DNA from: a virus
Taxonomy: Duplodnaviria; Heunggongvirae; Uroviricota; Caudoviricetes
Reading direction: 5' to 3' (one strand)
Length of the DNA: 64,000 nt
Virus record (IMG/VR): IMGVR_UViG_3300046820_000635
The position numbers and the translations under genes were made by a program. The notes under the pieces were generated by a model. It did not search any database. It was not told the origin of the DNA and saw nothing but the letters and a program-made list of their open reading frames with translations. Position 1 is the first letter of the stretch. Each line of letters starts with the position of its first letter. Shown here one piece after another: positions 5,467-56,588 of this stretch.

Positions 5467-6342
5467 ATGTTTAAATATAAGTTATTGCTGTATGAAGCGA
5501 TGAGAAATAAGTTCAAGACGCGGGGCCGAATAGGCAGCATCGAAGTATCGTCCAGCATAAATACATTTATGTATTACTATGTCTATCAAATAACAAACTT
5601 GTTAAACGGTAAGATTTATGTTGGGAAACATAAATCTTCCAAACATCCTTCTGAAAATCAATACTACGGTTCAGGAAAGCAAATCACTGCCGCTATTAAA
5701 AAATACGGCGTAGAAAACTTCAAGAAAGAAGTCTTGCATTATTGTTCTTCTTTAGAAGAAATGGCAGACAAAGAAGCAGAAGTTGTCACAGAAGATTTTG
5801 TAAAAAGACCCGATACATATAACATGCACAAAGGCGGCCCGGGAGGTTGGGACCACTACAACGGCAGCAAAGAGCACAGTGAAAATTCCCGCAAAGGCGG
5901 GAAAAAAGGTGCCAAGCGATTGAATGACTTTATAGCAGAACAAAAAGCCAACAACACAGAATGGTGGCAAAATTGGTATGCTACAGTTGTCGAACAAAAT
6001 CGTGCCAAGAATTCCAATGGCTGGAGCAATTTTACTCCCGACGAATATGAGCAGAGACGAGCACAAGCAAGTAAGTTAGCAACCGGAGAGGGCAATAGTC
6101 AATACGGTAAGATTTGGATCTCAAATGTATTGACTAAAGAAGTAAAACGTATTACAATCAATGATACTATTCCACAAGGATGGGTCAGAGGAAAGAAAGG
6201 GCACGTTCCTACAAAACTTTGGGTAAATAATGGTGTTAAGGAACATTATATCTTACTTGAAAAGAAACAAGAATATGTCCTTAAAGGTTTTAGTAGTGGC
6301 AGACTTAAATCAAGTATGTTACGAACGAGTATAGTAGTTTAA
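5467..6342 (+). CDS. GIY-YIG homing endonuclease (Seg-like)
   Basis: YYYVYQITNLLNGKIYVGKH (GIY-YIG core), later YYGSG and NFKKEV. Basic C-terminal DNA-binding half. The true start may be the ATG at 5569. Confidence 0.75.
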   Translation: MFKYKLLLYEAMRNKFKTRGRIGSIEVSSSINTFMYYYVYQITNLLNGKIYVGKHKSSKHPSENQYYGSGKQITAAIKKYGVENFKKEVLHYCSSLEEMADKEAEVVTEDFVKRPDTYNMHKGGPGGWDHYNGSKEHSENSRKGGKKGAKRLNDFIAEQKANNTEWWQNWYATVVEQNRAKNSNGWSNFTPDEYEQRRAQASKLATGEGNSQYGKIWISNVLTKEVKRITINDTIPQGWVRGKKGHVPTKLWVNNGVKEHYILLEKKQEYVLKGFSSGRLKSSMLRTSIVV

Positions 6343-13497: not shown

Positions 13498-14079
13498 ATG
13501 CTAACTGATATTATGATCGACATGGAGACACTCGATGTACTCCCTACTGCAACTATTCTTACTATTGGAGCAGTAAAGTTTGACCCGTTTGGCGATGATG
13601 TAAAAGATCCAAAATGTGAAAAGTTTTATGTTCGTGTAGATGTTGATAGTTGCGATGCTATTGGTTGTACTGTAAGTCCTGCTACTTTAGAATGGTGGAG
13701 TAAACAAGATCAAGCAGCACAAGACGAAGCATTTGATCCTGCAAATCGTATCAAGATTGAAGATGCTATGGCACAGCTTTATAAGTTTTGCTGGGGAGCA
13801 AAACGAGTATGGAGTCACGGTGCAGGATTTGATGTTATTATCTGCGAACACTTATTTAGAAAGCTGGGCCGAGCAGTTCCTTGGAGCTTCTGGGAGGTAC
13901 GTGATACTCGTACACTATTTGATATCGGTATTAATCCTAACCGCCCTCCTGTTTTAAAGCATCATGCTTTAGAAGATGCGTGGAATCAAGCAGTAGGTGT
14001 CCAGAACGTTTACAAAGCGCTACGATCTTCTACAATGCTTGACGGAACTTATATTAGTCCTCTGGCATCTCAGAGATAA
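13498..14079 (+). CDS. DEDDh 3'-5' exonuclease (DnaQ-like)
   Basis: MIDMETLD (Exo I), SHGAGFDV (Exo II), HHALEDA (Exo III). Confidence 0.7.
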   Translation: MLTDIMIDMETLDVLPTATILTIGAVKFDPFGDDVKDPKCEKFYVRVDVDSCDAIGCTVSPATLEWWSKQDQAAQDEAFDPANRIKIEDAMAQLYKFCWGAKRVWSHGAGFDVIICEHLFRKLGRAVPWSFWEVRDTRTLFDIGINPNRPPVLKHHALEDAWNQAVGVQNVYKALRSSTMLDGTYISPLASQR

Positions 14080-14133
14080 ATATTTTTTGTTAGCACCTGA
14101 TGGGCTAACATCGGGCATAATGCCCAAATTAGA

Positions 14134-14150
14134 TCTTACTTTATAAGGAG
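14134..14150 (+). promoter_or_regulatory. Conserved 18-nt element TCTTACTTTATAAGGAGA upstream of dnaK
   Basis: Identical copy sits upstream of the hsp20 gene at 16073-16090. Confidence 0.4.
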
Positions 14151-14157
14151 ATAGACA

Positions 14158-16041
14158 ATGTCTAAGATCATCGGTATTGACCTCGGCACCACCAATTCAT
14201 GCGTGGCTGTTATCGAGAATGGAACTTCCAAAGTTATTGAAAATGCAGAAGGTGCAAGAACAACACCTAGTATCGTCGCCTATGCAAATGACGAAATCCT
14301 AGTTGGTGCATCAGCAAAGCGTCAAGCAGTTACAAATCCCAAAAATACAATCTATGCAGCCAAGCGTTTAATCGGACGTAAGTTTAAAGAACAGGCTGTA
14401 CAAAAAGATCTCGGTCTAATGCCATATGAAATCTACGAAGCAGGCAACGGTGATGCATGGGTTCGTGCTCAAGGCAAAGAACTAGCACCACCACAGATTA
14501 GCGCAGAAGTCTTGCGCAAAATGAAAAAAACAGCAGAGGATTATCTAGGTGAAGAAGTTACTCAAGCGGTTATCACAGTTCCCGCATATTTTAATGACAG
14601 CCAAAGACAGGCTACAAAGGACGCTGGAAAGATCGCAGGCTTGGAAGTACTCCGTATTATTAACGAGCCTACTGCGGCAGCTCTTAGTTATGGCGTTGAT
14701 AAAACTGACAAAGCTGATCGCAAGATTGCTGTTTACGACCTTGGTGGCGGTACATTCGACGTATCAATCATTGAAATCGCGAATGTTGACGGTGACAAAC
14801 AAATCGAAGTACTAAGTACTAACGGCGACACTTTCTTGGGTGGCGAAGACTTTGATCAGCGTATTATGGATTTTCTGGTTGATACATTCAAACAGGAACA
14901 GGGCATTGATCTAACTAAAGATATGCTGGCCCTACAGCGGTTAAAAGAAGCCGCTGAAAAGGCTAAGATTGAGCTGTCTAGTTCTGCACAAACAGACGTT
15001 AACTTGCCCTACATTACAGCAGATGCAACAGGTCCTAAGCACATGAATGTCAAGTTGACTCGTGCTAAACTAGAAAGTCTTGTTGACGAACTAATCCAAC
15101 GTAGTATTGCACCATGTAAAACTGCTATGCAAGATGCTGGCGTAACCGCTAGCGATATTGACGAAGTTATTCTTGTTGGCGGTATGACACGTATGCCAAA
15201 GGTACAAGAAGCTGTTGAGAAGTTGTTTGGTAAGGCTCCTCGAAAGGATGTCAATCCGGACGAAGCAGTTGCTGTCGGCGCTGCTATTCAAGGTGCTGTG
15301 CTAGGTGGTGATCGTAAAGACGTTCTATTGCTAGACGTTACTCCATTGAGCCTAGGTATCGAAACACTAGGCGGTGTAATGAGCAAGTTGATTCAAAAGA
15401 ATACGACTATTCCGACTAAGTCTAGTCAAACATTCTCAACAGCTGAAGACAATCAACCTGCCGTAACTATCAAGGCCTACCAAGGTGAACGTGAACTATG
15501 CCAACACAACAAACTGTTAGGAGAGTTTAATCTCGAAGGTATTGCACCAGCTCGTCGTGGACAACCGCAGATCGAAGTTACCTTTGATATCGATGCTAAT
15601 GGTATCATGCATATCTCTGCCAAAGACAAGAGTACAGGTAAAGAAAATAAAATCACTATCAAGTCTAACAGCGGATTGAGTGACGATGAAGTTCAACGTA
15701 TGATTCGAGAAGCAGAAGAAAATGCCGAAGCCGATAAAAAGGCACGTACTCTTATTGAGACACGAAATCAAGCAGAAGCTATGGTGCATGAACTCAAGAA
15801 AGATACAGAAGATCTAAAAGACGAGCTTACTGACACACAACGTAGCGATGCCGAAGCTGCTATCCAAGCAGTGGCAGACGCAGGCAATGACGTAGATGCT
15901 ATCAAATCAGCAATCGAGAAACTGACTACAGTAGCGGTTTCTTTTGCACAGAAAAAACAGCTTAAAGAATCTGGTACAACACCGGACCAAGCTGCACAGG
16001 ATGATGTAGTTGATGCTACTTTTACTGAGAGCAAAAACTAA
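14158..16041 (+). CDS. dnaK: Hsp70 chaperone (DnaK-like)
   Basis: [26 protein letters not shown], complete 627 aa. AAGGAG RBS. Confidence 0.9.
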
Positions 16042-16072
16042 TCATAAAGAGTACCGTAATGGACTCTATTGA

Positions 16073-16090
16073 TTCTTACTTTATAAGGAG
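16073..16090 (+). promoter_or_regulatory. Conserved 18-nt element TCTTACTTTATAAGGAGA upstream of hsp20
   Basis: Identical to the element at 14134-14150 upstream of dnaK. Confidence 0.4.
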
Positions 16091-16096
16091 AAACAT

Positions 16097-16528
16097 ATGA
16101 ATCAACTAGCAAGAATAGACGCTTTAAACAGAGCATTGATTGGATTCGACACCATGTTCGATCAAATGGAACGCCGTTTCGCAAACAGCGTATCAAATAA
16201 CTATCCACCTCATAATATCATCAAGGTCGGAGAAAATAACTACAAGATTCAGTTGGCAGTAACAGGATTTAACAAATCCGAAGTTAGCGTAACTGTAGAA
16301 AACAATGTGCTGATTGTCAAGGGCGAAAGTATGACAACAGAGTGGCCTTCCGAAGCTTACCTCTATCGTGGTCTTGCTACCCGCGATTTTGTCAAAGAGT
16401 TTCCTCTTGCCGAACATATCGAAGTAGTTGGAGCACAAATCGAAAACGGCCTTTTGATCATTAGTTTGATTCGCAACATTCCAGAATCTGCGAAGCCTAA
16501 AGTGATTGACATCGTCGAGATTAAGTAA
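16097..16528 (+). CDS. Small heat shock protein (Hsp20/alpha-crystallin, IbpA-like)
   Basis: NYKIQLAVTGFNKSEVSVTVENNVLIVKGE alpha-crystallin domain. 143 aa. Confidence 0.8.
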   Translation: MNQLARIDALNRALIGFDTMFDQMERRFANSVSNNYPPHNIIKVGENNYKIQLAVTGFNKSEVSVTVENNVLIVKGESMTTEWPSEAYLYRGLATRDFVKEFPLAEHIEVVGAQIENGLLIISLIRNIPESAKPKVIDIVEIK

Positions 16529-16577
16529 TATAATAAAGGGGAAGGAAACTTCCCCTGTAACATAACCCGGAGAAAAC

Positions 16578-16880
16578 ATGGCCGTAGACACACAAATTGA
16601 CGAGAAGGTATCGATCAAAGTAGAACCACCAAAGATGTGGAAAGTAGTATTTTTAAACGATGACCATACTCCGATGGAATTTGTAATCGAACTGCTGGTA
16701 AGTATCTTTAGACATACTGAAAGCAAAGCTAAAGATCTTACTTTAGAAATTCATAATTCTGGTAGTGCAGTCGCGGGCATTTACAGTCACGAGATTGCAG
16801 AACAACGTGGGATGGAAGCAACACATCTCTCAAGAGCAAATGGATTCCCACTTCAGGTCCAACTAGAACAAGATTCCTAA
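16578..16880 (+). CDS. clpS: ClpS-like ATP-dependent Clp protease adaptor
   Basis: PKMWKVVFLNDDHTPMEFVIELLVSIFRHTESKA matches the ClpS core (YKVILLNDDYTPMEFV...). Confidence 0.8.
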   Translation: MAVDTQIDEKVSIKVEPPKMWKVVFLNDDHTPMEFVIELLVSIFRHTESKAKDLTLEIHNSGSAVAGIYSHEIAEQRGMEATHLSRANGFPLQVQLEQDS

Positions 16881-17162: not shown

Positions 17163-17708
17163 ATGAGTCTAAAAGATATTACCAAAGACCTCCACCATGA
17201 GGCAGAAACAACAAAGTTCGCTAAGATGCTGCTTAGTGGCAAGATTGGCAAAGAAGACTACAGAAACTATCTGTATAACTTAATGGCAGTATACGATCCA
17301 ATCGAATGGTACTGTCAGCGTCAAGGATTCCTTGTCGCAATGCCAGACTTACCTCGTCTAAAATCAATCTATGCAGATTTCATGGAGCTAGACGACGGAT
17401 CTTACTGTTACCTAACTCCAGCAACACTTGAATACCAAGCATACTTACACAAACTAGGTAACGATGAACAACGTAAACACCTTGTTAAAGCGCATCTATA
17501 TTGCCGCCATATGGGCGACTTATTCGGTGGCCAAATCATTAAGAAGCAGGTAGCACATATTTCAAGCGGTAAGTTCTACGACTTTGAAAATGCTGATGCT
17601 ATGAAGATGGCTATTCGCGTAACGCTTACCGACGACTTAGGTGACGAAGCTCGTGTAGCATTTGAATACGCTATTAAGATGATGCGAGATTTGTATAATG
17701 GAGAGTAA
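17163..17708 (+). CDS. Heme oxygenase (HO-1 family)
   Basis: LKDITKDLHHEAETTKF...YRNYLYNLMAVYDPIEW and AHLYCRHMGDLFGGQIIKK match the proximal-His and GDLSGGQ helix motifs of heme oxygenase. Confidence 0.7.
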   Translation: MSLKDITKDLHHEAETTKFAKMLLSGKIGKEDYRNYLYNLMAVYDPIEWYCQRQGFLVAMPDLPRLKSIYADFMELDDGSYCYLTPATLEYQAYLHKLGNDEQRKHLVKAHLYCRHMGDLFGGQIIKKQVAHISSGKFYDFENADAMKMAIRVTLTDDLGDEARVAFEYAIKMMRDLYNGE

Positions 17709-18381
17709 AGTTTGGGACTCACTGATTGCTGTACAACAGTACTTTGAAGAGTCATTTAATAATACAGGAAAGGAAGTCTATGAGACGGGTATGGATCGCT
17801 TTAACAGCCCTGGTTGGGTTAACCGTGTTTGGACCAGTGGGTCTTATCGTCGTGCTCACGTTGATGTTGTGGATGCTAGGAAAACAAAAGGACTGTGGAT
17901 GATGCACTGCTGTGTGTTTCCTCATACACACAATCCGGCACCAATCTTTGGTTTTGATGTTATTGCAGGCAAGAATAAAATCACAGGTTGTTTTTATGAC
18001 TACAGCCCTGCAGGCGATCCCGAACACCCTATGCTTGACTGGTTCGCAGACGAAGCACAACAACTAGAATGGGTTAAGACACGCAAGTTACCCGAGTGGG
18101 CTGAACGTATCTTTAGTACCAGTATGGTAGCTGCTGCTAATGTTAGTGACGAGACCGAACTTGCACAGATTGTAGACATGGCCTATCGTGGAATCGATAC
18201 TTACCTGCAATCAGTAGGCAATACCAACAATACAGCACATGACACAACAGACGCACAAAACTTCTATTGCGAAAATCAAAAGATGAATCCGCATACACCA
18301 AAAGTTATGGTCAGTCTTGGACTTAGCGAAGAAGACGTAAAGGTCTTTATTCAGGATTGTCTGTTTCCTGAAATCAAATAA
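17698..18381 (+). CDS. Ferredoxin-dependent bilin reductase (PebS/PcyA/PcyX family)
   Basis: RRAHVDVVDARKTKGLWMMHCCVFPHTHNPAPIFGFDVIAG matches the FDBR core (R.AH.D......L...H.V.FP......P.FG.D...). Overlaps and follows the heme oxygenase gene. Confidence 0.7.
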   Translation: MESKVWDSLIAVQQYFEESFNNTGKEVYETGMDRFNSPGWVNRVWTSGSYRRAHVDVVDARKTKGLWMMHCCVFPHTHNPAPIFGFDVIAGKNKITGCFYDYSPAGDPEHPMLDWFADEAQQLEWVKTRKLPEWAERIFSTSMVAAANVSDETELAQIVDMAYRGIDTYLQSVGNTNNTAHDTTDAQNFYCENQKMNPHTPKVMVSLGLSEEDVKVFIQDCLFPEIK

Positions 18382-18671: not shown

Positions 18672-18755
18672 GGTTTTCTTGCTCTAGATTAAACTCAGCG
18701 TTTAATTGCTGCCCCCGTGTATCTAAATACTATACCGATTACCGGGAGCGAATCA

Positions 18756-19247
18756 ATGAAAAGAACAATAGTAGGATTGGGGATTACTCTGGCCGTATAC
18801 ACGACATACGCAGCAGAAATCCAACATAGCTTTAATAGTCCGTCATTTAGTGGTGTAGGATATAGCAGCCATGTTCTTACACTTAAACAACTAGAAGATC
18901 AGCAGAAAGATAAAAACAAAGCTGCGATCGACGCATTAAAAGCTGCTGCTGAAAGAGAAGCAGCAAATACTCCACAGGCTAGATTTAAAGCCAGCATGGA
19001 AACAAGAGTCTACAGCGAGTTAGCTAAACGTATTAGCGATAGCCTATTCGGTAGCACAACTACAGCACCTACCTGCAATGGCGGTGGATCTAGTTCTTCT
19101 AGCAGCCCTTGCGCTGCTATTGAGTTAGTAGGACAAAACATTTCTTGGTGGATTACAGGATCTAACATTATTGTTAGAATTCAGGATGCTAATGATCCTA
19201 ACACATACACAGAAATGACCATGCCATATGCGGCATTTAGCATCTAA
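18756..19247 (+). CDS. CsgF-like curli assembly component (secreted)
   Basis: Signal peptide MKRTIVGLGITLAVYTTYA. Mature N-terminus EIQHSFNSPSFSGVGYSSHVLTLKQ parallels CsgF [29 protein letters not shown]. GGGAG RBS. Confidence 0.6.
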   Translation: MKRTIVGLGITLAVYTTYAAEIQHSFNSPSFSGVGYSSHVLTLKQLEDQQKDKNKAAIDALKAAAEREAANTPQARFKASMETRVYSELAKRISDSLFGSTTTAPTCNGGGSSSSSSPCAAIELVGQNISWWITGSNIIVRIQDANDPNTYTEMTMPYAAFSI

Positions 19248-19258
19248 GGATTAGAAAC

Positions 19259-20215
19259 ATGACAAAAACAATTATATCCTTAGCAATCATTGCATTATTG
19301 AGCGGATGTGCAACAAGTTCAGCTATACATGAAAAAGTCACAGGCAAACAATTTGATGAGCCAGTAGTTGAACAGAGTACATACTTAAAGAAAGATACAA
19401 ACAAGTTAAAGCCGCCAGCAACTGGTCCCATTCCTATTGCCGTATACGGATTTCAGGACAAGACTGGACAACGTAAGAGCATTCCGAACATTGCTAGTTT
19501 GAGTTCGGCAGTAACACAAGGTGCAGACAGCTATTTGATTAAAGCATTACAAGATGTAGGTGACCAGCGTTGGTTTACTGTTCTTGAAAGAGTTGGTTTA
19601 GAAAACCTAATCAAAGAGCGTCAAATGATTCGACAGATGCGTGAGCAGTATCAAGGTAAGGATGCAAAGCCTTTACCTCCTATGATGTTTGCTGGCGTAA
19701 TAGTTGAAGGTGGTATTATAGGCTATGATTCAAATACTCTAACTGGTGGTAGCGGAGTTAGATTTTTAGGAGTCGGAGCAACTACACAATACCAAAGCGA
19801 TACTGTAACTGTTAATCTACGCACAGTTAGCGTAAGCACAGGAGAAGTATTAACCAGTGTTACTATCACAAAAACTGTGTTAAGTTACATGGACAAGTTC
19901 GGAGTTCTGAAGTTTGTTGAGCAAGGTACACAAAGTATCGAAGCAGAAACAGGCGGCAGTATCAACGAAAGTATCAACAAAGCTGTGAATCTAGCAGTTC
20001 AAGCAGCCGTTGTTGGTACTATACATGAAGGTGCAAGGAAAGGGCATTGGAACTTTAAGGAGGAGAAAAAAGATGAGTTGGTTCAATCACAAACCTCGCC
20101 GCAAAGAGCCGCCGAAACTGTACCCTCACAACCACAGCCCAGCGACAAAGAAAGCGCTGGATCAGGCAAAGCAGTTGAGTCCGACAAAACAAACGGACAA
20201 AAAGAAGTAAAATAA
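19259..20215 (+). CDS. CsgG-like outer-membrane lipoprotein secretion channel
   Basis: Lipobox LLSGCATSS. IAVYGFQDKTGQ...RWFTVLERVGLENLIKERQMIRQ...AGVIVEGGIIGYDSNTLTGGSGVRFLGVGATTQYQSDTVTVNLRTVSVSTGEVLTSV aligns along the whole E. coli CsgG sequence. Confidence 0.85.
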   Translation: MTKTIISLAIIALLSGCATSSAIHEKVTGKQFDEPVVEQSTYLKKDTNKLKPPATGPIPIAVYGFQDKTGQRKSIPNIASLSSAVTQGADSYLIKALQDVGDQRWFTVLERVGLENLIKERQMIRQMREQYQGKDAKPLPPMMFAGVIVEGGIIGYDSNTLTGGSGVRFLGVGATTQYQSDTVTVNLRTVSVSTGEVLTSVTITKTVLSYMDKFGVLKFVEQGTQSIEAETGGSINESINKAVNLAVQAAVVGTIHEGARKGHWNFKEEKKDELVQSQTSPQRAAETVPSQPQPSDKESAGSGKAVESDKTNGQKEVK

Positions 20216-20228
20216 CAGGGAGCTCACT

Positions 20229-21065
20229 GTGTTACAAGCCGCAGTGAAAATAAAAATGAAATTAGGACAAACAAATACAATTAAAAATATAGTCCTGGTA
20301 ACGGCATTGGCAATGGCTAGCATCACAAATGCTCAGTCAACAGTTGCTACAGGCCCAAACAAGGTCTATATCGAACAAGTCGGTAATAGCAATACAGTTA
20401 CCATTCAGCAAGTTGGCGGAACTAACGACGTTGGCGGAACAGCCGTTACAGCATCATCAGTTGCAGCCAATGGAGTAACCACATTAACTCCAACAGCACC
20501 TAGTTCTTCGAACTATGCTACTATCACAGGTAGTTCGAATACTGTTACTCTAAATCAAACAGGTAACGGCAACAGTGCGCAGTACAATATTCAAGGTAAC
20601 GACAATGTCTATACCAGCAACGTTACAGGACACGGTAATCAAACTAGGTTAACTGTGGGCGATGTTAACAATGCTAGTAATCTACGTAATGTTATTACAG
20701 AAACAATCGTTGGCGACACAAACTTGATTATACAAGATATTGTTGGTAGTGATATTACCAGTATTACAGGTATTACAGGCAACTCAAACCAAGTTACAAA
20801 AAGTTTGTTAAGCTCAAACGGTACTAGCGACATTAGTATTTCTGGTAATAGTAACGTTCTAAACATTCAGCAAACAGACGCTGCTGGTGCAAACGGGCAT
20901 TATCTAAAACAAGTTATAGCAGGTGACTACAACAGCATCACTACTCAACAGCAAGGTACTAATGATACCACTGTTGATATCCGTGCTACAGGTAGCCACA
21001 ATACTATTACTGTAAGAACTAGTAGTTCAGCTATCGTTAATCCTGCAACAGCAATCGTGAGGTAA
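20229..21065 (+). CDS. Curlin-repeat secreted protein (CsgA/CsgB-like amyloid subunit candidate)
   Basis: Signal peptide, then degenerate repeats of the S-x5-Q-x-G-x-G-N-x-A-x3-Q type: NSNTVTIQQVGGTNDVGG, SSNTVTLNQTGNGNSAQYNIQG, GHGNQTRLTVGDVNNASNLRNVI and others. Confidence 0.6.
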   Translation: MLQAAVKIKMKLGQTNTIKNIVLVTALAMASITNAQSTVATGPNKVYIEQVGNSNTVTIQQVGGTNDVGGTAVTASSVAANGVTTLTPTAPSSSNYATITGSSNTVTLNQTGNGNSAQYNIQGNDNVYTSNVTGHGNQTRLTVGDVNNASNLRNVITETIVGDTNLIIQDIVGSDITSITGITGNSNQVTKSLLSSNGTSDISISGNSNVLNIQQTDAAGANGHYLKQVIAGDYNSITTQQQGTNDTTVDIRATGSHNTITVRTSSSAIVNPATAIVR

Positions 21066-21068
21066 GAC

Positions 21069-22172
21069 ATGCGAGTCCTTTTGTTAGCTCTACTGCTAAC
21101 ATTTTCTGTGGCTTCAAATGCCAATGGCAATATTGGCAAAGTCACAGAAAATAAAGGAAATGCCTGTGAAGTTGAAAGGAACAAGAAGAAGATGTCCGGC
21201 ATTAAAGGTGCCGACATTGAATCTTTGGATACCTATATAACACAGGCATGCGTAAGCACCTTGACATTTACCGATGATACCAAAGTCAAAGTTACAGAAA
21301 ACAGCCGTCTGCTTATTGACGATTTTGTTTTCGATCCTAAGAAAAGCGATGCAGGCAAGCTCGCTCTCAAAGTGGGTATGGGAACCGTTAGATACGCTAG
21401 CGGGCAGATTGCTAAGAACAATCCACAACAAGTCGCAATAAAAACCCCTTCGGCAACTATCGCAGTTCGCGGTACTGATTTCTCTATGACTGTGGACGAA
21501 GCAGGACAGAGTCTTGTGGTCCTACTGCCCAGCTGCAAAGAAGAAAAAGACATGAAGCAGTATGAGCTGGAAGAGAATCGCTGTAAAGTTGGTAAGATTG
21601 AAGTTAGTACAGATGCGGGTAAGGTAGTGTTGGATCAAGCATTTCATGCTACCTATGTTACCAGTACAAACATAATGCCGACTCCGGCTACAGTTATCAA
21701 CACCATCGAGGCCAAAATCAACAACAACCTAATATTGGTTAAGCCTATGGAAGTATCTACTGCTATCCGTGAACATGCCAAGACTAAGCAGGATCGAGAA
21801 CTAGAGGAAATCGAAGCAGAAGCTTCACGCAGACTTGCCGCAAGAGTTAAAGAAGCAGCAGAAGAAATAGAAAGAGCTAGACTGTTGGCACTAGCAGTTG
21901 CCTTGGGTACGGCTAGCTGTAATGCCAGTACCAGTATCTGTGTAAACTGGGAAAACACCGATGCCAGCACTATTCAAACCAAAGGCAAAGGCACTGCTTT
22001 TCGTACCAACGAGGATCACTATGCTGAAGTTAAGACACAGGGCTATAGTTCAAATACAAGCATTACAATAATACACAACGATGCATCGGCAACAGAAGTT
22101 ATCGGTGACGGAAGCGCAGGCGGAAATATGATTTATATCAAACAGAATGCAGGAGTGCTAAGAAGAAGATGA
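21069..22172 (+). CDS. Secreted FecR-domain protein with C-terminal coiled coil
   Basis: Signal peptide MRVLLLALLLTFSVASNA. IAIKTPSATIAVRGTDFSMTV matches the FecR beta-motif. Confidence 0.5.
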   Translation: MRVLLLALLLTFSVASNANGNIGKVTENKGNACEVERNKKKMSGIKGADIESLDTYITQACVSTLTFTDDTKVKVTENSRLLIDDFVFDPKKSDAGKLALKVGMGTVRYASGQIAKNNPQQVAIKTPSATIAVRGTDFSMTVDEAGQSLVVLLPSCKEEKDMKQYELEENRCKVGKIEVSTDAGKVVLDQAFHATYVTSTNIMPTPATVINTIEAKINNNLILVKPMEVSTAIREHAKTKQDRELEEIEAEASRRLAARVKEAAEEIERARLLALAVALGTASCNASTSICVNWENTDASTIQTKGKGTAFRTNEDHYAEVKTQGYSSNTSITIIHNDASATEVIGDGSAGGNMIYIKQNAGVLRRR

Positions 22173-24064
22173 TGACACGCATATTACAGTTCTTGGCATT
22201 GTTGGTACTTTCTGTCAGTGCGCAGAGTCAAACATATTACAATGCTATTGCTACTGCCTATGTTACAACAACTATCAGTCAGCATGTTGTATTTGATGCA
22301 AATATGCAAGCAGGTGGAACATTTACCTTTAGTGTATTAGCACACAATGGCGGTGGACGTGCCGGGCAAAGCGACACAGCCAACGTAAAGATAGAATTCT
22401 ACAACAGTAGTGGCGGATTAGTGTCGCAGGTAAACACATCGCACTCTGCTAACTTACCAAACCCTAACGCTGTGTGTGGTAATCCTTGTATCGATACAAG
22501 CGTTCCTTGGACAACACTGACTGTTAGTAAAACACTATCTGCGGCGGAAGCTGGAACAGTGGCCTATGCCCGAGTTAGTATGTATGGTATTGATGGAAGC
22601 TATTGGGCAGGTGATTACGGTCCGTGGTATCGTGCTCCTACTCTGCAACTTAACAGTGGTGGCAACTTATTGTATAACCCAGAGTTTGGTCCTTACAACA
22701 ACATAACAGCACAGGGTTGGACCAGTAATCCAGGGTTCGGTGCTTGTCAAGGTGCATGGGGTGGTAGTAATGCCTGTATCGTTAACAGCGATGGTGTACC
22801 TGGTTCTAGTACAGTTGGTTTAGTTGCTAACCAGAATGGTGGAGGCCCTAGTGCAACAGGTGGTACAACTAGCGGTACTGCTGGCGGATATAATAACACT
22901 ATGACAGTAACCAACGCAGGTACCGGTGCAACAGCTGGTGGTCCTCCCCCACCAGCCCCAACAGTTATTACCGGGTCATCACCGACAGTTTATATAACAA
23001 ACTACTATCCCACAAGTAATAACAGTCCTGTAAGTGAAGGAGCATCCAATGCTTTTGATGGTAATCCGAATACCAAATATCTAAACTTCGATAAACTAAA
23101 TGCAGGTGTAACTATTAAATTAAATTCGGGTCGAGTAGTTACAGGATTTAAACTTACTACAGCTAACGATTTTAGTGGGAGAGATCCTACTAGTTATAAA
23201 CTCTACGGAAGTAATAACGGAAGTACCTGGACTCTGATTCAGGAAGGTGCATTATCACTTAGCGAAAATCGACTTACAGTTAGTTCTGAGATTACTGTAA
23301 CTAATACTAATGCCTATGTTTACTATTATATTTTCTTTCCAACTACAAAAGCAGGTACAGGTTGTGGATTAGATTGTGATAGTATGCAGATTGCCGAAAT
23401 CACATACATCTATGATGCTAATAATACAACAACATCTACAGCTACAGGTTCATCAGTTTCTAACCCAGGAAGTTTATGCTGCGGAGGAAATGCTTCTTCG
23501 TTTAATGCTAATACTTCTAACTCTGCAAAAGTTTTATTATTCACTAATAGAACAACAGCAGATAGTCAAGTTTATATTGAACAAATCGGTATTGGTAATA
23601 ATATAGAAGTATTTCAATCCGGCACTAGACAAAACTATGCAAAATATTACGGCAATGGATCAAACAATGATGTAACTATTATACAGACAGGAAATGCCTC
23701 TACTTCTGTGAACTATACAGATTTGTCAATAACAGGCAATTCAAATAATGTTAATGTTACACAACAAAGCAGCGGAGGCGGCAAAGGAGCGTTTGTTACT
23801 ATATCTAATAACTCGAATATTGTTAATGTTACGCAAAAAGATTCTGGAAGCCATTATTTAGATCTAGCACTATCCGGTGGAAATAAAACTGTAGGTGTAC
23901 TACAACAGGGATCCGCTAGTCATATGGCTACTATTAATCTAAGTGGAAATCCTACCAGTTTAAATCTAACTCAAAGCGGAAGTACACAAAACTTTTATTC
24001 TATTACTCACAACTGTGCAACAGCAGGTGGGTGTGCTCCTATTACAGTGACACAAGGCAACTAA
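22169..24064 (+). CDS. Large secreted protein: N-terminal beta-rich domain, Gly/Thr/Pro linker, F5/8-type-C (discoidin-like) domain, C-terminal curlin-like repeats
   Basis: Signal peptide. NAFDGNPNTKYLNFDK...TGFKLTTANDFSGRDPTSYKLYGSNNGSTW discoidin-like. C-terminal repeats SQVYIEQIGIGNNIEVFQSG, SNNDVTIIQTGNAS, NSNNVNVTQQSSGGGKGA, NKTVGVLQQGSASHMA. Confidence 0.55.
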   Translation: MMTRILQFLALLVLSVSAQSQTYYNAIATAYVTTTISQHVVFDANMQAGGTFTFSVLAHNGGGRAGQSDTANVKIEFYNSSGGLVSQVNTSHSANLPNPNAVCGNPCIDTSVPWTTLTVSKTLSAAEAGTVAYARVSMYGIDGSYWAGDYGPWYRAPTLQLNSGGNLLYNPEFGPYNNITAQGWTSNPGFGACQGAWGGSNACIVNSDGVPGSSTVGLVANQNGGGPSATGGTTSGTAGGYNNTMTVTNAGTGATAGGPPPPAPTVITGSSPTVYITNYYPTSNNSPVSEGASNAFDGNPNTKYLNFDKLNAGVTIKLNSGRVVTGFKLTTANDFSGRDPTSYKLYGSNNGSTWTLIQEGALSLSENRLTVSSEITVTNTNAYVYYYIFFPTTKAGTGCGLDCDSMQIAEITYIYDANNTTTSTATGSSVSNPGSLCCGGNASSFNANTSNSAKVLLFTNRTTADSQVYIEQIGIGNNIEVFQSGTRQNYAKYYGNGSNNDVTIIQTGNASTSVNYTDLSITGNSNNVNVTQQSSGGGKGAFVTISNNSNIVNVTQKDSGSHYLDLALSGGNKTVGVLQQGSASHMATINLSGNPTSLNLTQSGSTQNFYSITHNCATAGGCAPITVTQGN

Positions 24065-24080
24065 TACAGCAAATAAATAG

Positions 24081-26135
24081 TTGATGCAAATCAAACTAAA
24101 ATCTTTGCTGTTAAGCCCGTGGACAGCAGTAATCACACTGGCACTAGTACTAGGTATCCGCGTTAGCGATCCAGCGTTTGTAGAAAGCGTTAGACTACGT
24201 TATTTTGACACACTAATCACTGCTAAAGAACCTACACAAAATAATATTGTTACGGTTAACATTGACGAAGAATCTTTAGATAAACTAGGACAATGGCCTT
24301 TACCGAGGGCAGAGTATGCTAAAATTATTAAAGACTTGTATGATAGGGGCGCTGGCCTTGTTGTTCTCAACGTGCTTATGGCTGAGCCTGATCGCACTGG
24401 TGGTGACTCAGCTCTTGCCCAGGCTCTTTCTCAATATCCAGTAGTTCTAGGTAGTGTACCTAGCGACAAAACAAAAAACATTCCACGCAATCCGGGCAGT
24501 GCTGTTCTGGGACCAGAGTTTCTTGATCAAATCATAACCTATCCCGGAATCATTGCCAATATACCTCCTCTAGAAAAATCAGCAGCAGGGATTGGTATTG
24601 TAAATACTCTACCAGAAGTTGATGGTGTAAATCGCCGATTACCTTTGATTGCCGGTGTTGACGGCAAACTATACCCAAGCATAGCTATGGAGACACTGCG
24701 AGTAGCAGCAGGCGATTCAACCTTTCAAGTAAAGCTCAACGAGAATGGCGTTGAGAAAATGCGTATTCCAAAGTTTGGCCCTATTACTACGGACAACTTT
24801 GGACGCATCTGGGTCGATTGGAGCCAGGAGAATCAAAGTGTAAGTCTAACTAACTTGCCCAAAGATCTCGCTGGCGCTATCGTTATTGTTGGACCTACCG
24901 CAGCAGGGGTGAGCAATCCAGTACCGACTGCTAAGGGTGCAGTATGGCCGCATGATGTTCAAGCCGCAGTTATTGGTACAATGGTCAATGGCGTTGTTAT
25001 ACAGAGGCCTGACTATGCAGACGGTCTAGAAATACTTGCTATTGCATTAGCAGGATTAATTTTATTATTTTTAACAAGGTGGACTTATGTTGGATTGGGT
25101 GCAACTATTGTTATTGCTGTGGGCGGCTACGTTGCTAGTAGCTACGCTTTCAGTAACTTTCTATTCTTATTTGATACTACTGCCTTTACAGCTGGCACAG
25201 TCTTGGTCGCTTTGCATGCCTATGGTGTCAAGTTTGTAAGTGAGTTTTTACAGAAGCAGGCAATCAAGAAACAGTTTGCTGGCTACTGCTCAAAAGAAGT
25301 AGTAGAGATGCTACAGAAAGATCCAGACTTAATCAAGCGTGGTGTGCGTAAAGACGTGTCAGTTATGTTTAGTGACTTGCGTGGATTTACTCCTATTGGT
25401 GAACATTACGGTGATGATGTAGGCGGACTAGGCAAGTACATGAACGGCTACATGGATGCTATTAGTCGTCCTATTATGGACAACAAGGGTATGGTTATCA
25501 AGTATGTAGGTGATGCGTCAATGCACATCCATGGAGCTCCTATTGAAGATCCTAACCACGCTAGAACTATTGTTGCTGTTGGCCTACAGATGTTAGATGC
25601 TGTTGATGCCTATACAAAAGAAATGGAAGCACAAGGATTACCACCAGCCGCAATGGGTTGGGGTTGTAACACAGGTATTGGCTTCATTGGCGAGATGGGT
25701 TCAACTGATAGGCACAGCTATGACATCTTAGGCGACATGGTTTCAACTGCGGCTCGCTTAGAAGCACGTTGCAAGGCTTATGGCGTACTATGTATTATTG
25801 GTGCTGAAACATACAACCGCACTAAAGATGATTTCTTCTACTTGTGTATCGATAACTTACAACCCAAGGGCAAGTCAGTAGCAGACTTAATATATACAGC
25901 ACTACGCCCCAACGGTGAGGACTGGAGTAAAGACCTAGTTAAGTACAACGAAATGCAAGCCCTGTACAAGGCTAAGAAGTTTGACGAAGCTGCTGCTATG
26001 TGCTCTAAGATGAAAGGTACATTCGGTGGACAAATGGACAAGTATTATAAGATTTGGATTGAACGTTGTGACTTCATGAAACAGCAAGATCTAGGCCCAG
26101 ATTGGCAGGGAGAGTTTATAGCGAATGAAAAATAA
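24081..26135 (+). CDS. CHASE2 sensor domain - multi-TM - class III adenylate/guanylate cyclase
   Basis: N-terminal TM plus an extracytoplasmic CHASE2-like region, about 4 TM helices, then VSVMFSDLRGFTPIGEHY...GDASMHIHGAP (cyclase metal-binding Asp and transition-state residues). Confidence 0.75.
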   Translation: MMQIKLKSLLLSPWTAVITLALVLGIRVSDPAFVESVRLRYFDTLITAKEPTQNNIVTVNIDEESLDKLGQWPLPRAEYAKIIKDLYDRGAGLVVLNVLMAEPDRTGGDSALAQALSQYPVVLGSVPSDKTKNIPRNPGSAVLGPEFLDQIITYPGIIANIPPLEKSAAGIGIVNTLPEVDGVNRRLPLIAGVDGKLYPSIAMETLRVAAGDSTFQVKLNENGVEKMRIPKFGPITTDNFGRIWVDWSQENQSVSLTNLPKDLAGAIVIVGPTAAGVSNPVPTAKGAVWPHDVQAAVIGTMVNGVVIQRPDYADGLEILAIALAGLILLFLTRWTYVGLGATIVIAVGGYVASSYAFSNFLFLFDTTAFTAGTVLVALHAYGVKFVSEFLQKQAIKKQFAGYCSKEVVEMLQKDPDLIKRGVRKDVSVMFSDLRGFTPIGEHYGDDVGGLGKYMNGYMDAISRPIMDNKGMVIKYVGDASMHIHGAPIEDPNHARTIVAVGLQMLDAVDAYTKEMEAQGLPPAAMGWGCNTGIGFIGEMGSTDRHSYDILGDMVSTAARLEARCKAYGVLCIIGAETYNRTKDDFFYLCIDNLQPKGKSVADLIYTALRPNGEDWSKDLVKYNEMQALYKAKKFDEAAAMCSKMKGTFGGQMDKYYKIWIERCDFMKQQDLGPDWQGEFIANEK

Positions 26136-27153: not shown

Positions 27154-27182
27154 TTGACAAACTTTTAAACTGGTGCTATAAT
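27154..27182 (+). promoter_or_regulatory. Consensus extended -10 promoter TTGACA-N17-TGcTATAAT
   Basis: The 19-mer GGTGCTATAATATACACAT is repeated verbatim at 40738-40756. Confidence 0.65.
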
Positions 27183-27209
27183 ATACACATATATTATCTA
27201 GAGGCCTTT

Positions 27210-33971: not shown

Positions 33972-34046
33972 GCGCTATTAGCTAAGTGGCATAGCAGGAG
34001 CCTCTAAAACTCCGTAGCGTGGGTTCGATTCCCACATAGCGCACCA
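33972..34046 (+). tRNA. tRNA with CUA anticodon (amber-reading suppressor-type tRNA), CCA encoded
   Basis: Perfect 7-bp acceptor GCGCTAT/ATAGCGC, D arm GCTA-AGTGGCA-TAGC, anticodon arm GGAGC-CTCTAAA-ACTCC (U33, A37), T arm GTGGG-TTCGATT-CCCAC, discriminator A, CCA. Confidence 0.65.
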
Positions 34047-40723: not shown

Positions 40724-40752
40724 TTGACAGAATGGTAAAACGGTGCTATAAT
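40724..40752 (+). promoter_or_regulatory. Consensus promoter TTGACA-N17-TGcTATAAT (repeat of the 27154 element)
   Basis: GGTGCTATAATATACACAT is identical to 27173-27191. Confidence 0.65.
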
Positions 40753-40778
40753 ATACACATCAACAAAGAAAGTATCGT

Positions 40779-45830: not shown

Positions 45831-46146
45831 GCAAAAGTTCTTTGACGAGATCAAAGGTATTCAGAGAATCGTCATTAATGACTGCTACGGTGGCTTTGGC
45901 CTGAGCAGTCGTGCTGAAACTGAATATAAGAAACTTGCTGGTATTCCTGCAGATGATCAATGGAGTCACTATGATATTCCCCGTGACGATCCTTATCTTG
46001 TTAAGGTAGTAAGAGAGTTGGGCATGGCAGCAAATGGTGCTCATGCTAATCTTAAGATCGTTGAAGTGCCCGGGGATGTCCTGTGGGATATTGCAGAGTA
46101 CGATGGTGTAGAATGGGTTGCTGAAAAGCATCGCACATGGTCATGA
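45823..46146 (+). CDS. hypothetical protein ending ...HRTWS (tggtcatga junction, like the paralog family)
   Basis: 107 aa. Confidence 0.45.
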   Translation: MNKQKFFDEIKGIQRIVINDCYGGFGLSSRAETEYKKLAGIPADDQWSHYDIPRDDPYLVKVVRELGMAANGAHANLKIVEVPGDVLWDIAEYDGVEWVAEKHRTWS

Positions 46147-46340
46147 AAGTAGAACCCACAAGCTATCCCGGTTGGTCAGACCATCCTACTTATCTTGTTC
46201 GCACATTCAAAGACTACGAAGAAGTTTGTATGTGGATGTACAAAAATCAAGTAGAACATTTCTTGTTAAGTTCTGGATCCAACGGGTACACGTTTCAAGT
46301 TAGAGGTAAGAAGGAATGGTTTGAACTAAAATGGGGTTAA
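46143..46340 (+). CDS. paralog-family small protein 1 (C-term ...FELKWG)
   Basis: ATGA coupling. C-terminal family motif. Confidence 0.5.
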   Translation: MKVEPTSYPGWSDHPTYLVRTFKDYEEVCMWMYKNQVEHFLLSSGSNGYTFQVRGKKEWFELKWG

Positions 46341-46630
46341 TAGCAGTAAAAGGTGGTTGGGTAGCTATGCGTACAACATCAGTTAATCATTGGCAGTTTT
46401 ATGACGGAGTAACTCCGATTAATCCAGGTAATATATTTGGAGAGATAGTTCCGCCACGTGGATGGACCTGTTGGGTATATCCCGAAAACGATCAAGCATT
46501 TGAGGATTGGATGGCTACAAACTGTCCTACAGCAGAATGTACACATCGTTTTAACAGTGGAGATCCTATGTATACTGTTAATATTACAGACGACAAAGAG
46601 GCAACTATGTTTCAGCTGAAGTGGCTATGA
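46331..46630 (+). CDS. paralog-family small protein 2 (…DDKEATMFQLKWL)
   Basis: C-terminal E.DA..F.LKW motif. Confidence 0.5.
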   Translation: MGLIAVKGGWVAMRTTSVNHWQFYDGVTPINPGNIFGEIVPPRGWTCWVYPENDQAFEDWMATNCPTAECTHRFNSGDPMYTVNITDDKEATMFQLKWL

Positions 46631-46881
46631 AACCAATCATCCTTTCGAAACCTCAGTGGTATTCACTCAAGGAAAAGGTTAACCAAGATTATCCTCCTAG
46701 TGTAAGTCTTGTTCGAGAGAAGATGAAACGTGTGCTAGGCTTTACTCCTAGATTGCACGAAACGTGGGATGCACGTACAGGCTATAACATAGAAATGCAC
46801 TTAGATTTTTTCGACGATCAAAAACGAACAATGTTTCTTTTAAAGTATAGTGAATATGTCTCACAAAATCGCAACACTTGA
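46627..46881 (+). CDS. paralog-family small protein 3 (…DDQKRTMFLLKYS…)
   Basis: ATGA coupling. Motif present, with an 11-aa extension after it. Confidence 0.5.
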   Translation: MKPIILSKPQWYSLKEKVNQDYPPSVSLVREKMKRVLGFTPRLHETWDARTGYNIEMHLDFFDDQKRTMFLLKYSEYVSQNRNT

Positions 46882-47089
46882 CGAAATAATGTCCACTCGT
46901 GTTAAACAACAGTGGATGTATCGTGTTGACGTTACTGTCAACTCTGCAGAGATGGATAAGATGACTGCCTGGTGTGAAACCAATGCTAGAGGAGCATGGC
47001 GAGTTAATACTAAATTTATTGAATATTTTCAGTTTGAAAAAGACAGTGATGCTATGATGTTTATGTTAAAGTTTGGCGGTTCTCAATGA
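46850..47089 (+). CDS. paralog-family small protein 4 (…EKDSDAMMFMLKFGGSQ)
   Basis: C-terminal motif. Confidence 0.5.
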   Translation: MNMSHKIATLDEIMSTRVKQQWMYRVDVTVNSAEMDKMTAWCETNARGAWRVNTKFIEYFQFEKDSDAMMFMLKFGGSQ

Positions 47090-47448
47090 AACCCTGCATC
47101 TGGTATCATACCGCTGATAAAAATCCGGGCAGTAGTGGATTTTATCTCAGCCTTCGAGGTTGGGGTATTGCTGGTAAAGCAGACTACGATAGCGACTATG
47201 GTTATCTCTACTACGATAAAAAAAGAAATCAATGGAGAGAATACGACTCCATTAACAGTCACAGTGCTATTGTATATTACTGGACTGAGGCAGATCCGGG
47301 CAAATGGGTGGACAACGATCCTCCGGTAACTCATCGTAAGAGCATAACCACTGAGGCAAATGCTTCACTGAAGAGTGCTTGGGAAAATGTTGAAAAAGCA
47401 GTTGAACAATATAATCTAATTAAGGCACTATCAAATGATGTTGAATAA
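47086..47448 (+). CDS. array gene 5, no C-terminal motif
   Basis: 120 aa, W-rich, ATGA-coupled. Confidence 0.4.
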   Translation: MKPCIWYHTADKNPGSSGFYLSLRGWGIAGKADYDSDYGYLYYDKKRNQWREYDSINSHSAIVYYWTEADPGKWVDNDPPVTHRKSITTEANASLKSAWENVEKAVEQYNLIKALSNDVE

Positions 47449-47872
47449 TCTAACCGATAAAGAACTTATCAATCACGTTATCAAGTTTGATAATGACCCT
47501 ATTCGTATCCGTCTTGCTACGGCGAACGAAAGAACTACGGGAGCTATCTGGGACGATCTAGTTGATGTGGGTATGGACGAAACCTACTGCACGTTTACCA
47601 GCGAATGGGGTAGTAATATGCACGTTGGGCGTTACATTCAACATCTTCGCGAAGAGCTTGAAATTCGTGATGATGAGCTTCATAACCTACGCGAAGAGCT
47701 TGAAGAACAAAAAGCTCGCACTATTGCTGATTTGATTAACGAACTTAATCAACAGATTACTACAGAACGTTACATAGCAAAAGAAGCTCGTATGGATCTA
47801 GACAAAGCACGTCAAGAAGCAGCCGATGCCAAAGAAAAACTTAAAATGTGGAATCACTTGCGGACACCGTGA
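47435..47872 (+). CDS. array gene 6, coiled-coil protein, no motif
   Basis: 145 aa. Confidence 0.4.
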   Translation: MMLNNLTDKELINHVIKFDNDPIRIRLATANERTTGAIWDDLVDVGMDETYCTFTSEWGSNMHVGRYIQHLREELEIRDDELHNLREELEEQKARTIADLINELNQQITTERYIAKEARMDLDKARQEAADAKEKLKMWNHLRTP

Positions 47873-48129: not shown

Positions 48130-48146
48130 CTGTATAATTCTTTCCT

Positions 48147-49495: not shown

Positions 49496-49499
49496 TGCT

Positions 49500-54589: not shown

Positions 54590-54595
54590 CAATAA

Positions 54596-56532: not shown

Positions 56533-56588
56533 CCTTTTGGAATATAGATGCTATACTATATTTTTAATCAACTACTTTAAAGTCAATC

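Follow-up and report, generated by a model that had tools for sequence, protein, structure and literature searches.

What is the role of a short element repeated identically ahead of two chaperone genes in a phage genome? The question is raised by a stretch of 64,000 nucleotides (hereafter, the window) from the IMG/VR virus record IMGVR_UViG_3300046820_000635 (Caudoviricetes). In this window, dnaK, hsp20 and clpS, coding for an Hsp70, a small heat-shock protein (sHsp) and an N-degron adaptor, follow one another on the plus strand, and the same 18-mer, TCTTACTTTATAAGGAGA, precedes both dnaK and hsp20. An original prediction had grouped the three genes in one proteostasis module and had proposed that the 18-mer was either a phage-specific regulatory site or a conserved translation-initiation region. 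The analysis presented here, based on comparative sequence data and predicted folds, leads to a more precise proposal: the 18-mer is probably, though far from certainly, the 3'-proximal hairpin, masking the Shine-Dalgarno (SD) sequence, of a short ROSE-like mRNA leader carried by the chaperone genes of this phage and of hundreds of others. Its most likely function would be a translational control by SD sequestration, responsive to heat and/or to sHsps.

Specificity of the element for chaperone genes

The 18-mer is present exactly twice in the window, on the plus strand, at 14134-14151 and 16074-16091, ending 6 nt before the ATG of dnaK (14158) and 5 nt before that of hsp20 (16097). The identity of the two copies, announced in the original prediction with coordinates that were off by one base, is thus confirmed. 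When up to three mismatches are tolerated, these two copies remain the only matches (0.09 expected, with two matches in none of 100 shuffles).

The original prediction had itself mentioned the reading that would ruin it, namely a generic strong ribosome-binding site (RBS) context found ahead of many unrelated genes. This is not what the window or two larger scans contain. The relaxed motif C[TA]T[AG]CT[TA]-N2-9-AGGAG, searched on both strands, occurs 149 times in the 971 kb of dnaK loci from 80 related viral contigs: 73 times before dnaK, 72 before hsp20 and 4 before groES-groEL, and ahead of no non-chaperone gene in this set. As a negative control, 660 kb of structural-gene regions were taken from pelagimyophage-type marine contigs issued from a tail-sheath search, which do not belong to the window's own clade. 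They contain 278 AGGAG-N4-9-ATG sites, and the relaxed motif only twice, both times within coding sequence and with no start codon. As the motif is confined to chaperone genes in the first set and absent as a start-site motif from the second, the generic strong-RBS reading fails. A stricter pattern, TCTTRCTT-N3-6-AAGGAGA, yielded at least 125 matches in the whole viral collection; among the matches listed, about 95 precede a gene for an IbpA-like sHsp (140-165 aa) and about 12 precede dnaK, most of the others having no open reading frame (ORF) downstream.

A covariance model (R1) was also built from uncultured sequences, with the hsp20 leader of the window in its seed and the dnaK leader outside it. 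In the whole window, both the regular expression and R1 (filters off) find the dnaK and hsp20 sites as the only motif sites. The dnaK leader (14100-14160), although foreign to the seed, scores 24.1 bits (E 6e-4), and the hsp20 leader (16046-16099), which belongs to it, 43.6 bits. R1 gives no match on clpS, and only 13.4 bits (E 0.34) upstream of clpP, neither gene carrying the leader. One more R1 match, at 6233-6277 with ATCTTACTT, is considered as due to chance because it lies inside an ORF and has no SD. A further occurrence of TCTTACTTTA, at 16736, has AGATCTTACTTTA in common with the dnaK copy and is coding (KDLTLE, inside clpS); it is not conserved at the DNA level, relatives using different codons there, and is therefore also attributed to chance.

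In some relatives, the same leader stands before groES of a groES-groEL pair (L071/L072, 2276-4230; L006, 7925-9873; L019, 3102-; L139, 10725-10779), which is located between dnaK and hsp20 or upstream of dnaK. A few full leaders also lie ahead of non-chaperone ORFs (L120, 4155-4209; L172, minus strand; L104/L167), coding for 65-aa, 93-aa acidic-tailed and 300-aa proteins, which are possible further members of a regulon.

The SD-sequestering hairpin

The two halves of the 18-mer, UCUU-R-CUU (5') and AAG-GAGA (3'), are complementary, the purine being bulged. In the window, the predicted fold comprises (A)UCUU-[A]-CUU, the loop UAU and AAG-GAGA(U), that is, eight pairs including one U.G, and one bulged purine. 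Of 216 distinct related leaders, 121 have TCTT-G-CTT as anti-SD and 76 have TCTT-A-CTT, while minor forms (e.g., CTC-A-CTT and ACTC-G-CTT) turn the U.G pair into C-G. The bulged base is always a purine (G in 135, A in 81), and it agrees between the dnaK and hsp20 leaders in 77 of 77 contigs (A/A in 46, G/G in 31).

Folding of the 123 ORF starts of the window at 15 °C ranks dnaK second and hsp20 fifth for predicted SD occlusion; when restricted to the 40 starts with a recognisable SD, they come first and second. The two strongest SDs of the window (AAGGAGA type) are, in these predictions, the most occluded of the recognisable ones. The predicted probability of the SD being unpaired climbs with temperature, the helix being worth -1.6 to -3.3 kcal/mol at 37 °C. 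These models suggest that the SD may be occluded in vivo, and that temperature may be the signal.

The upstream hairpin and whole-leader folds

The leader includes a second structure, hairpin I, located 5' of the SD-sequestering one. Its shape is fixed: a lower stem that varies, closed by one pair (U.G or C-G), a 5' bulge of a single purine, an upper stem of two to four pairs beginning with C-G, and a loop of 3-5 nt. It is found in 173 of the 216 distinct leaders, compared with 36 of 1080 shuffled sequences; the bulged base is G in 97 cases, A in 76, and never a pyrimidine. RNAalifold, applied to a MAFFT alignment of 70 leaders, recovers hairpin I with compensatory changes at all seven of its pairs. 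In the 84 hits of the covariance model, an alignment which is fitted to the model and thus biased toward this structure, 95.9% of cells are paired versus 68.4% when shuffled, double-sided changes number 148 versus 36.5, none of 500 shuffles scores as high for covariation, and slid registers reach at most 0.12, versus 0.745.

The whole-leader folds are of -22.4 kcal/mol for dnaK (z -3.2) and -10.6 kcal/mol for hsp20 (z -1.6). The dnaK leaders of this lineage contain an extra hairpin (hairpin II, Table 1), the position of which is occupied by gggcatagtgccc or agagcatagtgctc in relatives. A resemblance of hairpin I to the CIRCE/HrcA operator (TTAGCACTC-N9-GAGTGCTAA) was rejected: the segment TTAGCACC-TGAT-GGGCTAA at 14090-14108, which gives the TTAGCAC..GCTAA appearance, is a hairpin of only 19 nt, the stem of which varies freely in relatives.

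Relationship to ROSE and other RNA thermometers

ROSE-like thermometers, found in sHsp leaders, are recognised by a stretch U(U/C)GCU that pairs imperfectly with the SD, within the most 3' of two to four hairpins (PMC4166951, PMC3669281). The hsp20 copy lies in the 5' untranslated region (UTR) of an IbpA/HspA-type sHsp gene, as usual for this family, for which the dnaK copy is atypical. Two hairpins are predicted for hsp20, and three plus a start-codon hairpin for dnaK, with the SD in the 3'-proximal one. UUGCU or UCGCU is present in 135 of the 216 distinct related leaders.

Several observations nevertheless weigh against the proposed reading. Both copies of the window read UUACU rather than U(U/C)GCU, with A (14138 and 16078) in place of the bulged G. 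They match none of the Rfam families ROSE, ROSE_2 and ROSE_3 at E ≤ 10, even in a 76-nt search, and all ROSE matches of relatives remain below the gathering score, which no phage leader reaches. The isolated SD hairpins are worth -1.6 and -1.8 kcal/mol at 37 °C, which is no better than shuffles (z about 0). As the SD is invariant, no compensatory changes are possible in the key helix, and the pair flanking it gives weak support (50% paired versus 43% shuffled, 33 of 2000 shuffles scoring as high). RNAfold misses the known structure of E. coli ibpA in its full context, and thermodynamic predictions are, therefore, soft. Lastly, as the structural-gene control is not of the exact clade, the leader may still be one used for a few very highly expressed genes.

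The G-type leaders come closer to described families. The best Rfam match of a G-type phage leader is ROSE_3 (22.2 bits, E 0.005, for a cut-off of 43); in this alignment, hairpin I is matched by GGAUGCC..GGGUCC, and the anti-SD and SD by CUUGCU/AGGAG. ROSE_3 is also the best Rfam match of an alphaproteobacterial leader (28.1 bits, E 0.018), with hairpin I and the anti-SD in the predicted register, and a Bdellovibrionales dnaK leader scores 24.3 bits on Rfam ROSE. The positive control, an E. coli ibpAB fragment in an unverified 'phage' record, reaches 100.4 bits on ROSE_2. The presence of E. coli ibpA-ibpB, together with their ROSE_2 leader, in the unverified record MG065691.1, 'Campylobacter phage A11a' (L203), points to host or contaminant DNA in this deposit.

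Among known thermometers, the Pseudomonas ibpA ROSE_3 (RF02523; Krajewski et al. 2013, PMC3669281) likewise has a leader of about 55-62 nt, folded into two hairpins, ahead of an IbpA-type sHsp gene, with a 5'-bulged hairpin I having a GAUGCC..GGGUC core and a hairpin II pairing the anti-SD CU-Y-G-CU with AGGAG. It differs from the present leaders in that homologues score 22-28 bits versus 43, the bulge of the window is A and not G, and the phage stems are A/U-rich without flanking G-C pairs. Moreover, the phage promoters are T4-late-like or sigma-70-like, not sigma-32, and the element is also found on dnaK and groES. In E. coli ibpA/ibpB (ROSE_2, RF01832), a 5'-bulged hairpin is likewise followed by an SD hairpin (CUC-G-CUG/CAG-GAG, compared with UCUU-R-CUU/AAG-GAGA in phages), and a second, internal copy precedes the downstream cistron, ibpB in E. 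coli and hsp20 in the window. Unlike the phage leader, that of E. coli has an extra 5' hairpin and a sigma-32 promoter, and neither model detects the other's sequences, ROSE_2 missing the phage leaders and R1 missing E. coli ibpA.

FourU elements and the single-hairpin thermometer of Synechocystis hsp17 (PMC4166951) also pair a short U-rich strand with AGGA in a weak helix ahead of heat-shock genes, but have neither the interrupting purine, nor the CUU extension, nor the conserved upstream hairpin of the phage element. The window anti-SD, UCUU-A-CUU, lacks the four consecutive U facing AGGA that define fourU. Temperature-sensitive mRNA leaders have been described in phage genomes, for lambda cIII and for the fourU of blyA in prophage SPbeta (PMC10586365); unlike the chaperone leader, these are single cases on lysis-lysogeny or lysis genes, neither ROSE-like nor chaperone-linked. 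Weak matches to the Rfam families freshwater-2 and pan were discarded, since they only reflect a tail in common (AAGGAGAAA..AUG) or a bulged hairpin of generic type. For freshwater-2 (RF02980), an orphan cis-regulatory motif known from freshwater metagenomes, the matches on L108 (1076-1185), L094 (536-611) and the window (16049-16099) are below threshold and driven by the shared AAGGAGAAAAcAAAUG tail; this motif may stem from the same kind of phages.

Bacterial counterparts and cultured phages

The leader is not restricted to phages. A 19-mer, TCTTGCTTAATAAAGGAGA, is matched exactly at 28 sites of the bacterial genome collection, 22 of which precede a chaperone gene (21 hsp20 and one dnaK, in L304), the other six having no ORF downstream and looking like chance. 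The hsp20 matches mostly come from marine alphaproteobacterial single-cell genomes, and also from metagenome-assembled genomes (MAGs) of Pelagibacter and Rickettsiales, and from a Polynucleobacter MAG; in a Bdellovibrionales MAG, the element separates grpE from dnaK. These bacterial leaders have the identical SD hairpin and the bulged hairpin I, and the neighbouring genes are cellular ones (aldolase, RecD2, flavodoxin). Upstream, they carry CTTGTAA-N15-CCCATCTA, which is similar to the sigma-32 consensus quoted in PMC3669281. As the same leader is found on chromosomal hsp20 and dnaK genes with sigma-32-like promoters, it is, judging from its sequence, a bacterial heat-shock element that phages carry behind different promoters. 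Of the two possibilities offered by the original prediction, the conserved translation-initiation region stands, with a regulatory character, and the phage-specific site does not.

The leader is also found in phages that can be cultivated. It precedes hsp20 in Syn9, P-SSM3 and S-CRM01 (after TATAAATA), in HTVC115P (after a sigma-70-type promoter), and in the Pseudomonas jumbo phage PA5oct; R1 detects those of PA5oct, P-SSM3, Syn9 and S-CRM01 at E 7e-6 to 9e-4. The proteostasis cluster of PA5oct (clpX ... hsp20-clpS ... ftsH) resembles the window in having hsp20 directly upstream of clpS, and its hsp20 leader in combining ATAAATA, hairpins including a bulged UGAGUGCC..GGGCUCA, and AUCUUGCGUAAAGGAGA. 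It differs by the absence of an adjacent dnaK and of the heme oxygenase and bilin reductase genes, and by proteins that are only 31-38% identical. In S-CRM01 (L205, 1005-1908), the T4-like translational repressor gene regA is directly upstream of hsp20 and its leader.

Promoters and regulatory units

The 18-mer itself is neither a sigma-32 site nor the TATAAATA box, in agreement with the original prediction; nevertheless, a T4-late-like box, GATAAATA, is found upstream of the dnaK copy. It agrees at seven of eight positions with TATAAATA, which in T4-type late promoters lies about 6-7 nt ahead of the transcript start. The T4 late-promoter core, NATAAATA, clusters sharply by position, falling between -90 and -60 in 70 of the 73 distinct leaders of dnaK and in 57 of the 138 of hsp20. 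In the window, GATAAATA would be the promoter of the dnaK leader, the transcript starting just 3' of the box. The 55-nt spacer between dnaK and hsp20 contains no NATAAATA-type box, and hsp20 is probably co-transcribed with dnaK by read-through, like ibpB with ibpA in E. coli.

The case of clpS is different. A perfect sigma-70 promoter, at 16506-16534, with TTGACA..TATAAT found at the same place in relatives (e.g., L027, L042 and L048), may serve as a separate promoter for clpS and the genes downstream. This promoter is embedded in the codons of the C-terminal V-I-D-I motif of the sHsp and its stop, and the same DNA is, thus, at once coding sequence and putative promoter. The hairpin that follows it, at 16537-16556, is kept in relatives with stem changes, precedes a plain GGAG site for clpS, and could be a 5' stabiliser or a processing or termination signal. 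As clpS has no leader and has its own sigma-70 consensus, dnaK-hsp20-clpS form at least two regulatory units rather than one, and the module of the original prediction has to be revised in this respect.

Alternative explanations

The leader could be an operator, at which an IbpA-type sHsp (the phage Hsp20 or that of the host) represses the translation of dnaK, hsp20 and groES, with aggregates titrating the sHsp, which would make the leader an aggregation sensor, and temperature acting only indirectly. This explanation is plausible, although unlikely to hold in place of a thermometer. The phage Hsp20 is IbpA-like and, by manual comparison with E. coli IbpA, has an Arg (GLATRDF) at the position of R93 (GIAERNF); such an arginine is, however, widespread in sHsps and not diagnostic. 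The fixed shape of hairpin I, Y-R(bulge)-C..G-G, suits a protein-binding site, and the concordance of the SD-hairpin bulge between the two leaders of each contig would fit a shared trans factor, although shared ancestry may explain it instead. A precedent exists, since IbpA of E. coli and other gamma-proteobacteria binds the ibpA/ibpB 5' UTRs and represses translation, clients relieving this repression, but the RNA determinants of the binding are undefined in this work (PMC10474464). An operator of this kind is compatible with a thermometer and may act on top of it or coexist with it.

Somewhat less probable is a translational enhancer, in which a pyrimidine- or AU-rich tract upstream of a consensus SD recruits S1 or 16S rRNA, as for the 'epsilon' of T7 gene 10 (TTAACTTTAAGAAGGAGATATACAT). 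DnaK and sHsps are needed in large amounts, and AAGGAGA is the strongest type of SD in the window. Furthermore, TTACTTTATAAGGAGATAGACA is similar to TTAACTTTAAGAAGGAGATATACA of the T7 gene 10 leader, a likeness that constitutes a lead rather than a test. However, the tract is conserved specifically as a complement of the SD with a purine bulge, it is accompanied by a covarying hairpin, and it makes the SD unusually occluded, not exposed, in the predictions. It is also absent before the 278 structural-region genes and the other window genes with a strong SD, and the leader is shared with bacterial heat-shock genes of sigma-32 type.

A site acting at the DNA level, whether a promoter or an operator, is very improbable. 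The candidates are a MotA-box-like TGCTT (TTGCTTAA is similar to the T4 MotA box consensus), a phage-specific double-stranded DNA promoter, or a CTTG similar to the -35 element of the sigma-32 consensus quoted in PMC3669281. Nevertheless, the motif is directly adjacent to the SD and keeps a fixed spacing of 5-8 nt to the ATG; a transcript started from it would, therefore, lack an RBS. Moreover, no -10 partner recurs at a constant spacing, and separate promoters (NATAAATA, sigma-70-like or sigma-32-like) exist upstream. The least credible explanation is a recent duplication or gene conversion devoid of function. Only 13 of 77 contigs have the whole element, from anti-SD to SD, identical in their two genes, and copy identity is, therefore, lineage-specific. 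The conservation data contradict this explanation, however: the motif has been kept while flanks and proteins diverged to 40-80% identity, across phage families and bacteria.

Proposed mechanism and significance

In the SD-masking leader that is favoured here, transcription of dnaK would start just after GATAAATA, and hsp20 would probably be read through from dnaK. Each leader would open with the conserved 5'-bulged hairpin, that of dnaK carrying one extra hairpin. The UCUU-A-CUU tract would then pair with the SD, AAG-GAGA, over a 3-nt loop with one purine bulged, hiding the RBS. Given its weakness and its richness in A/U, this helix is expected to open on warming, allowing the translation of DnaK and Hsp20, and of GroES/EL in relatives; the titration of a leader-binding IbpA-type sHsp may likewise release translation. 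If SD sequestration is correct, scrambling UCUUACUU should derepress translation at low temperature.

On a broader scale, it is conceivable, with the balance leaning slightly against it, that a ROSE-derived leader copied onto every chaperone unit (hsp20, dnaK, groES-groEL) behind phage promoters constitutes a self-contained post-transcriptional heat-shock regulon of large aquatic phages. If so, chaperone translation in the infected cell would track temperature or aggregation without host sigma-32, and the concerted G-to-A change of the bulge in the copies of one lineage could retune the set-point to the habitat. The role of phage hsp20 would then become directly testable, through the leader of the 'core' hsp20 of model cyanophages and PA5oct.

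In open-access and bioRxiv full text, no report was found of a ROSE-like element or an RNA thermometer on phage hsp20, dnaK or groES. In a 2024 review, RNA thermometers of phages are presented as a speculative idea awaiting exploration (PMC10884466), and hsp20, a core gene of T4-like cyanophages and large freshwater phages, is of unclear role, the papers discussing only the protein (PMC7674155). The leader appears ROSE-like in its architecture and ancestry; its novelty lies in being below the Rfam thresholds, in the A-bulge form of the window, and in its presence on several chaperone genes behind phage promoters. Being chaperone-specific, it offers a concrete regulatory handle, and implies that phage chaperones would be made upon heat or aggregation load rather than constitutively. 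Phages would, thus, retain the post-transcriptional control of the host while swapping the transcriptional one. The leader also connects uncultured DnaK-encoding phages with the tractable Syn9, P-SSM3, S-CRM01 and PA5oct, and its very A/U-rich variants could act as low-temperature thermosensors in synthetic biology.

Gene content and other features of the window

Table 1. Coordinates of the chaperone and protease genes, and of the leader and promoter features of the window
Feature	Coordinates	Strand	Evidence or remark
T4-late-like box GATAAATA	14075-14082	+	Sequence; just 5' of hairpin I, overlaps the stop codon of the upstream exonuclease gene
dnaK leader hairpin I: 7-bp lower stem, bulged A14095, CC/GG upper stem, 4-nt loop	14088-14110	+	Predicted fold
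dnaK leader hairpin II, GGGCA-UAA-UGCCC, extra in dnaK leaders of this lineage	14113-14125	+	Predicted fold
dnaK SD-sequestering hairpin, AUCUU-[A14138]-CUU/UAU/AAG-GAGAU	14133-14152	+	Minimum free energy fold (((((.(((...))))))))
Small start-codon hairpin, AGAC-AAU-GUCU, around the dnaK ATG (14158-14160)	14153-14163	+	Predicted fold, weak
dnaK, full-length Hsp70, 627 aa	14158-16041	+	Pfam HSP70, E 6e-258
hsp20 leader hairpin I, AGAGU-[A16053]-CC/GUAAU/GG-ACUCU	16048-16067	+	Predicted fold; in the 55-nt dnaK-hsp20 spacer
hsp20 SD-sequestering hairpin, UUCUU-[A16078]-CUU/UAU/AAG-GAGAA	16073-16092	+	Predicted fold
hsp20, IbpA-like sHsp, 143 aa	16097-16528	+	Pfam HSP20, E 7.5e-17
Sigma-70 promoter TTGACA-17-TATAAT	16506-16534	+	12/12 match; spans the last hsp20 codons and stop
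G+C-rich hairpin between hsp20 and clpS	16537-16556	+	-14.9 kcal/mol, z -2.7; no T-run after it on the + strand
clpS, N-degron adaptor homologue	16578-16880	+	Pfam ClpS, E 4e-28
clpP, ClpP-family serine protease, not adjacent to dnaK-hsp20-clpS	58333-58926	+	Pfam CLP_protease, E 9.5e-30

The window corresponds to an accessory region of a T4-like phage, with genes for ribonucleotide reductase, homing endonucleases, nicotinamide adenine dinucleotide (NAD) salvage enzymes, an Rv2179c-like exonuclease, a heme oxygenase and a ferredoxin-dependent bilin reductase, homologues of the curli proteins CsgF and CsgG, and 21 transfer RNA (tRNA) genes. The assignments made in the original prediction for Hsp70, the alpha-crystallin sHsp, ClpS and the distant ClpP with intact Ser/His motifs are all borne out by Pfam and by alignments to solved ClpP and ClpS. 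The N-terminal motifs GFD..F and YPPHN of Hsp20 are similar to those of E. coli IbpA. In ClpP, VMSAA, MCHQ and ASDVY align with AASAG, MIHQ and NRDYF of the solved 3q7h, giving a Ser/His/Asp triad. The pocket of ClpS (NDDxTP, gatekeeper Met, His) is recognisable in FLNDDHTPMEF and EIHNSG, which align with LVNDDYTPMEF and AVHYQG of E. coli.

DnaK relatives are encoded in at least 600 IMG/VR viral contigs, the best 80 being 76-85% identical, and some of the 80 contigs fetched are 236-383 kb long. The order orf436-orf133-exonuclease-dnaK-hsp20-clpS-(orf88)-heme oxygenase-bilin reductase is kept in most of these 80. The phage collection contains no DNA near-identical to the window, and its DnaK matches were set aside as contaminants or megaphages. 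The heme oxygenase and bilin reductase genes (17163-18381) are directly 3' of clpS/orf88, and most related contigs have them in synteny with the chaperone genes; among cultured phages, the Pelagibacter myophage Mosig encodes the closest relative of the bilin reductase (50% identity).

Further downstream, an envelope and signalling block (18717-26135) codes for CsgF, CsgG, curlin-repeat-like, FecR-domain and F5/8 type C domain proteins, together with a 684-aa protein combining CHASE2 and adenylate/guanylate cyclase domains. Twenty tRNA genes are clustered on the plus strand at 59999-63524, with an odd two-base anticodon call at 62682-62768. Far from this main cluster, a solitary tRNA gene (33972-34046) has a CUA anticodon and is labelled 'Pyl' by ARAGORN; it resembles an amber suppressor, and TAG might, therefore, be read through or recoded in the phage.

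About 40 small ORFs (60-135 aa), tightly overlapping, occupy positions ~46100-56500 of the plus strand. Many of them begin with GTG or ATG within a recurring ..TTTGT(A/T)TTGAGGTG.. junction, and this run points to a paralogous family amplified in tandem; no Pfam match was obtained for the three proteins tested. Lastly, near-identical sigma-70-type promoters with an extended -10 (TTGAC..N..TGCTATAAT/TGCTATACT) are located ahead of gene blocks at ~27170-27205, ~40740-40775 and ~56550-56585, and look like early promoters.

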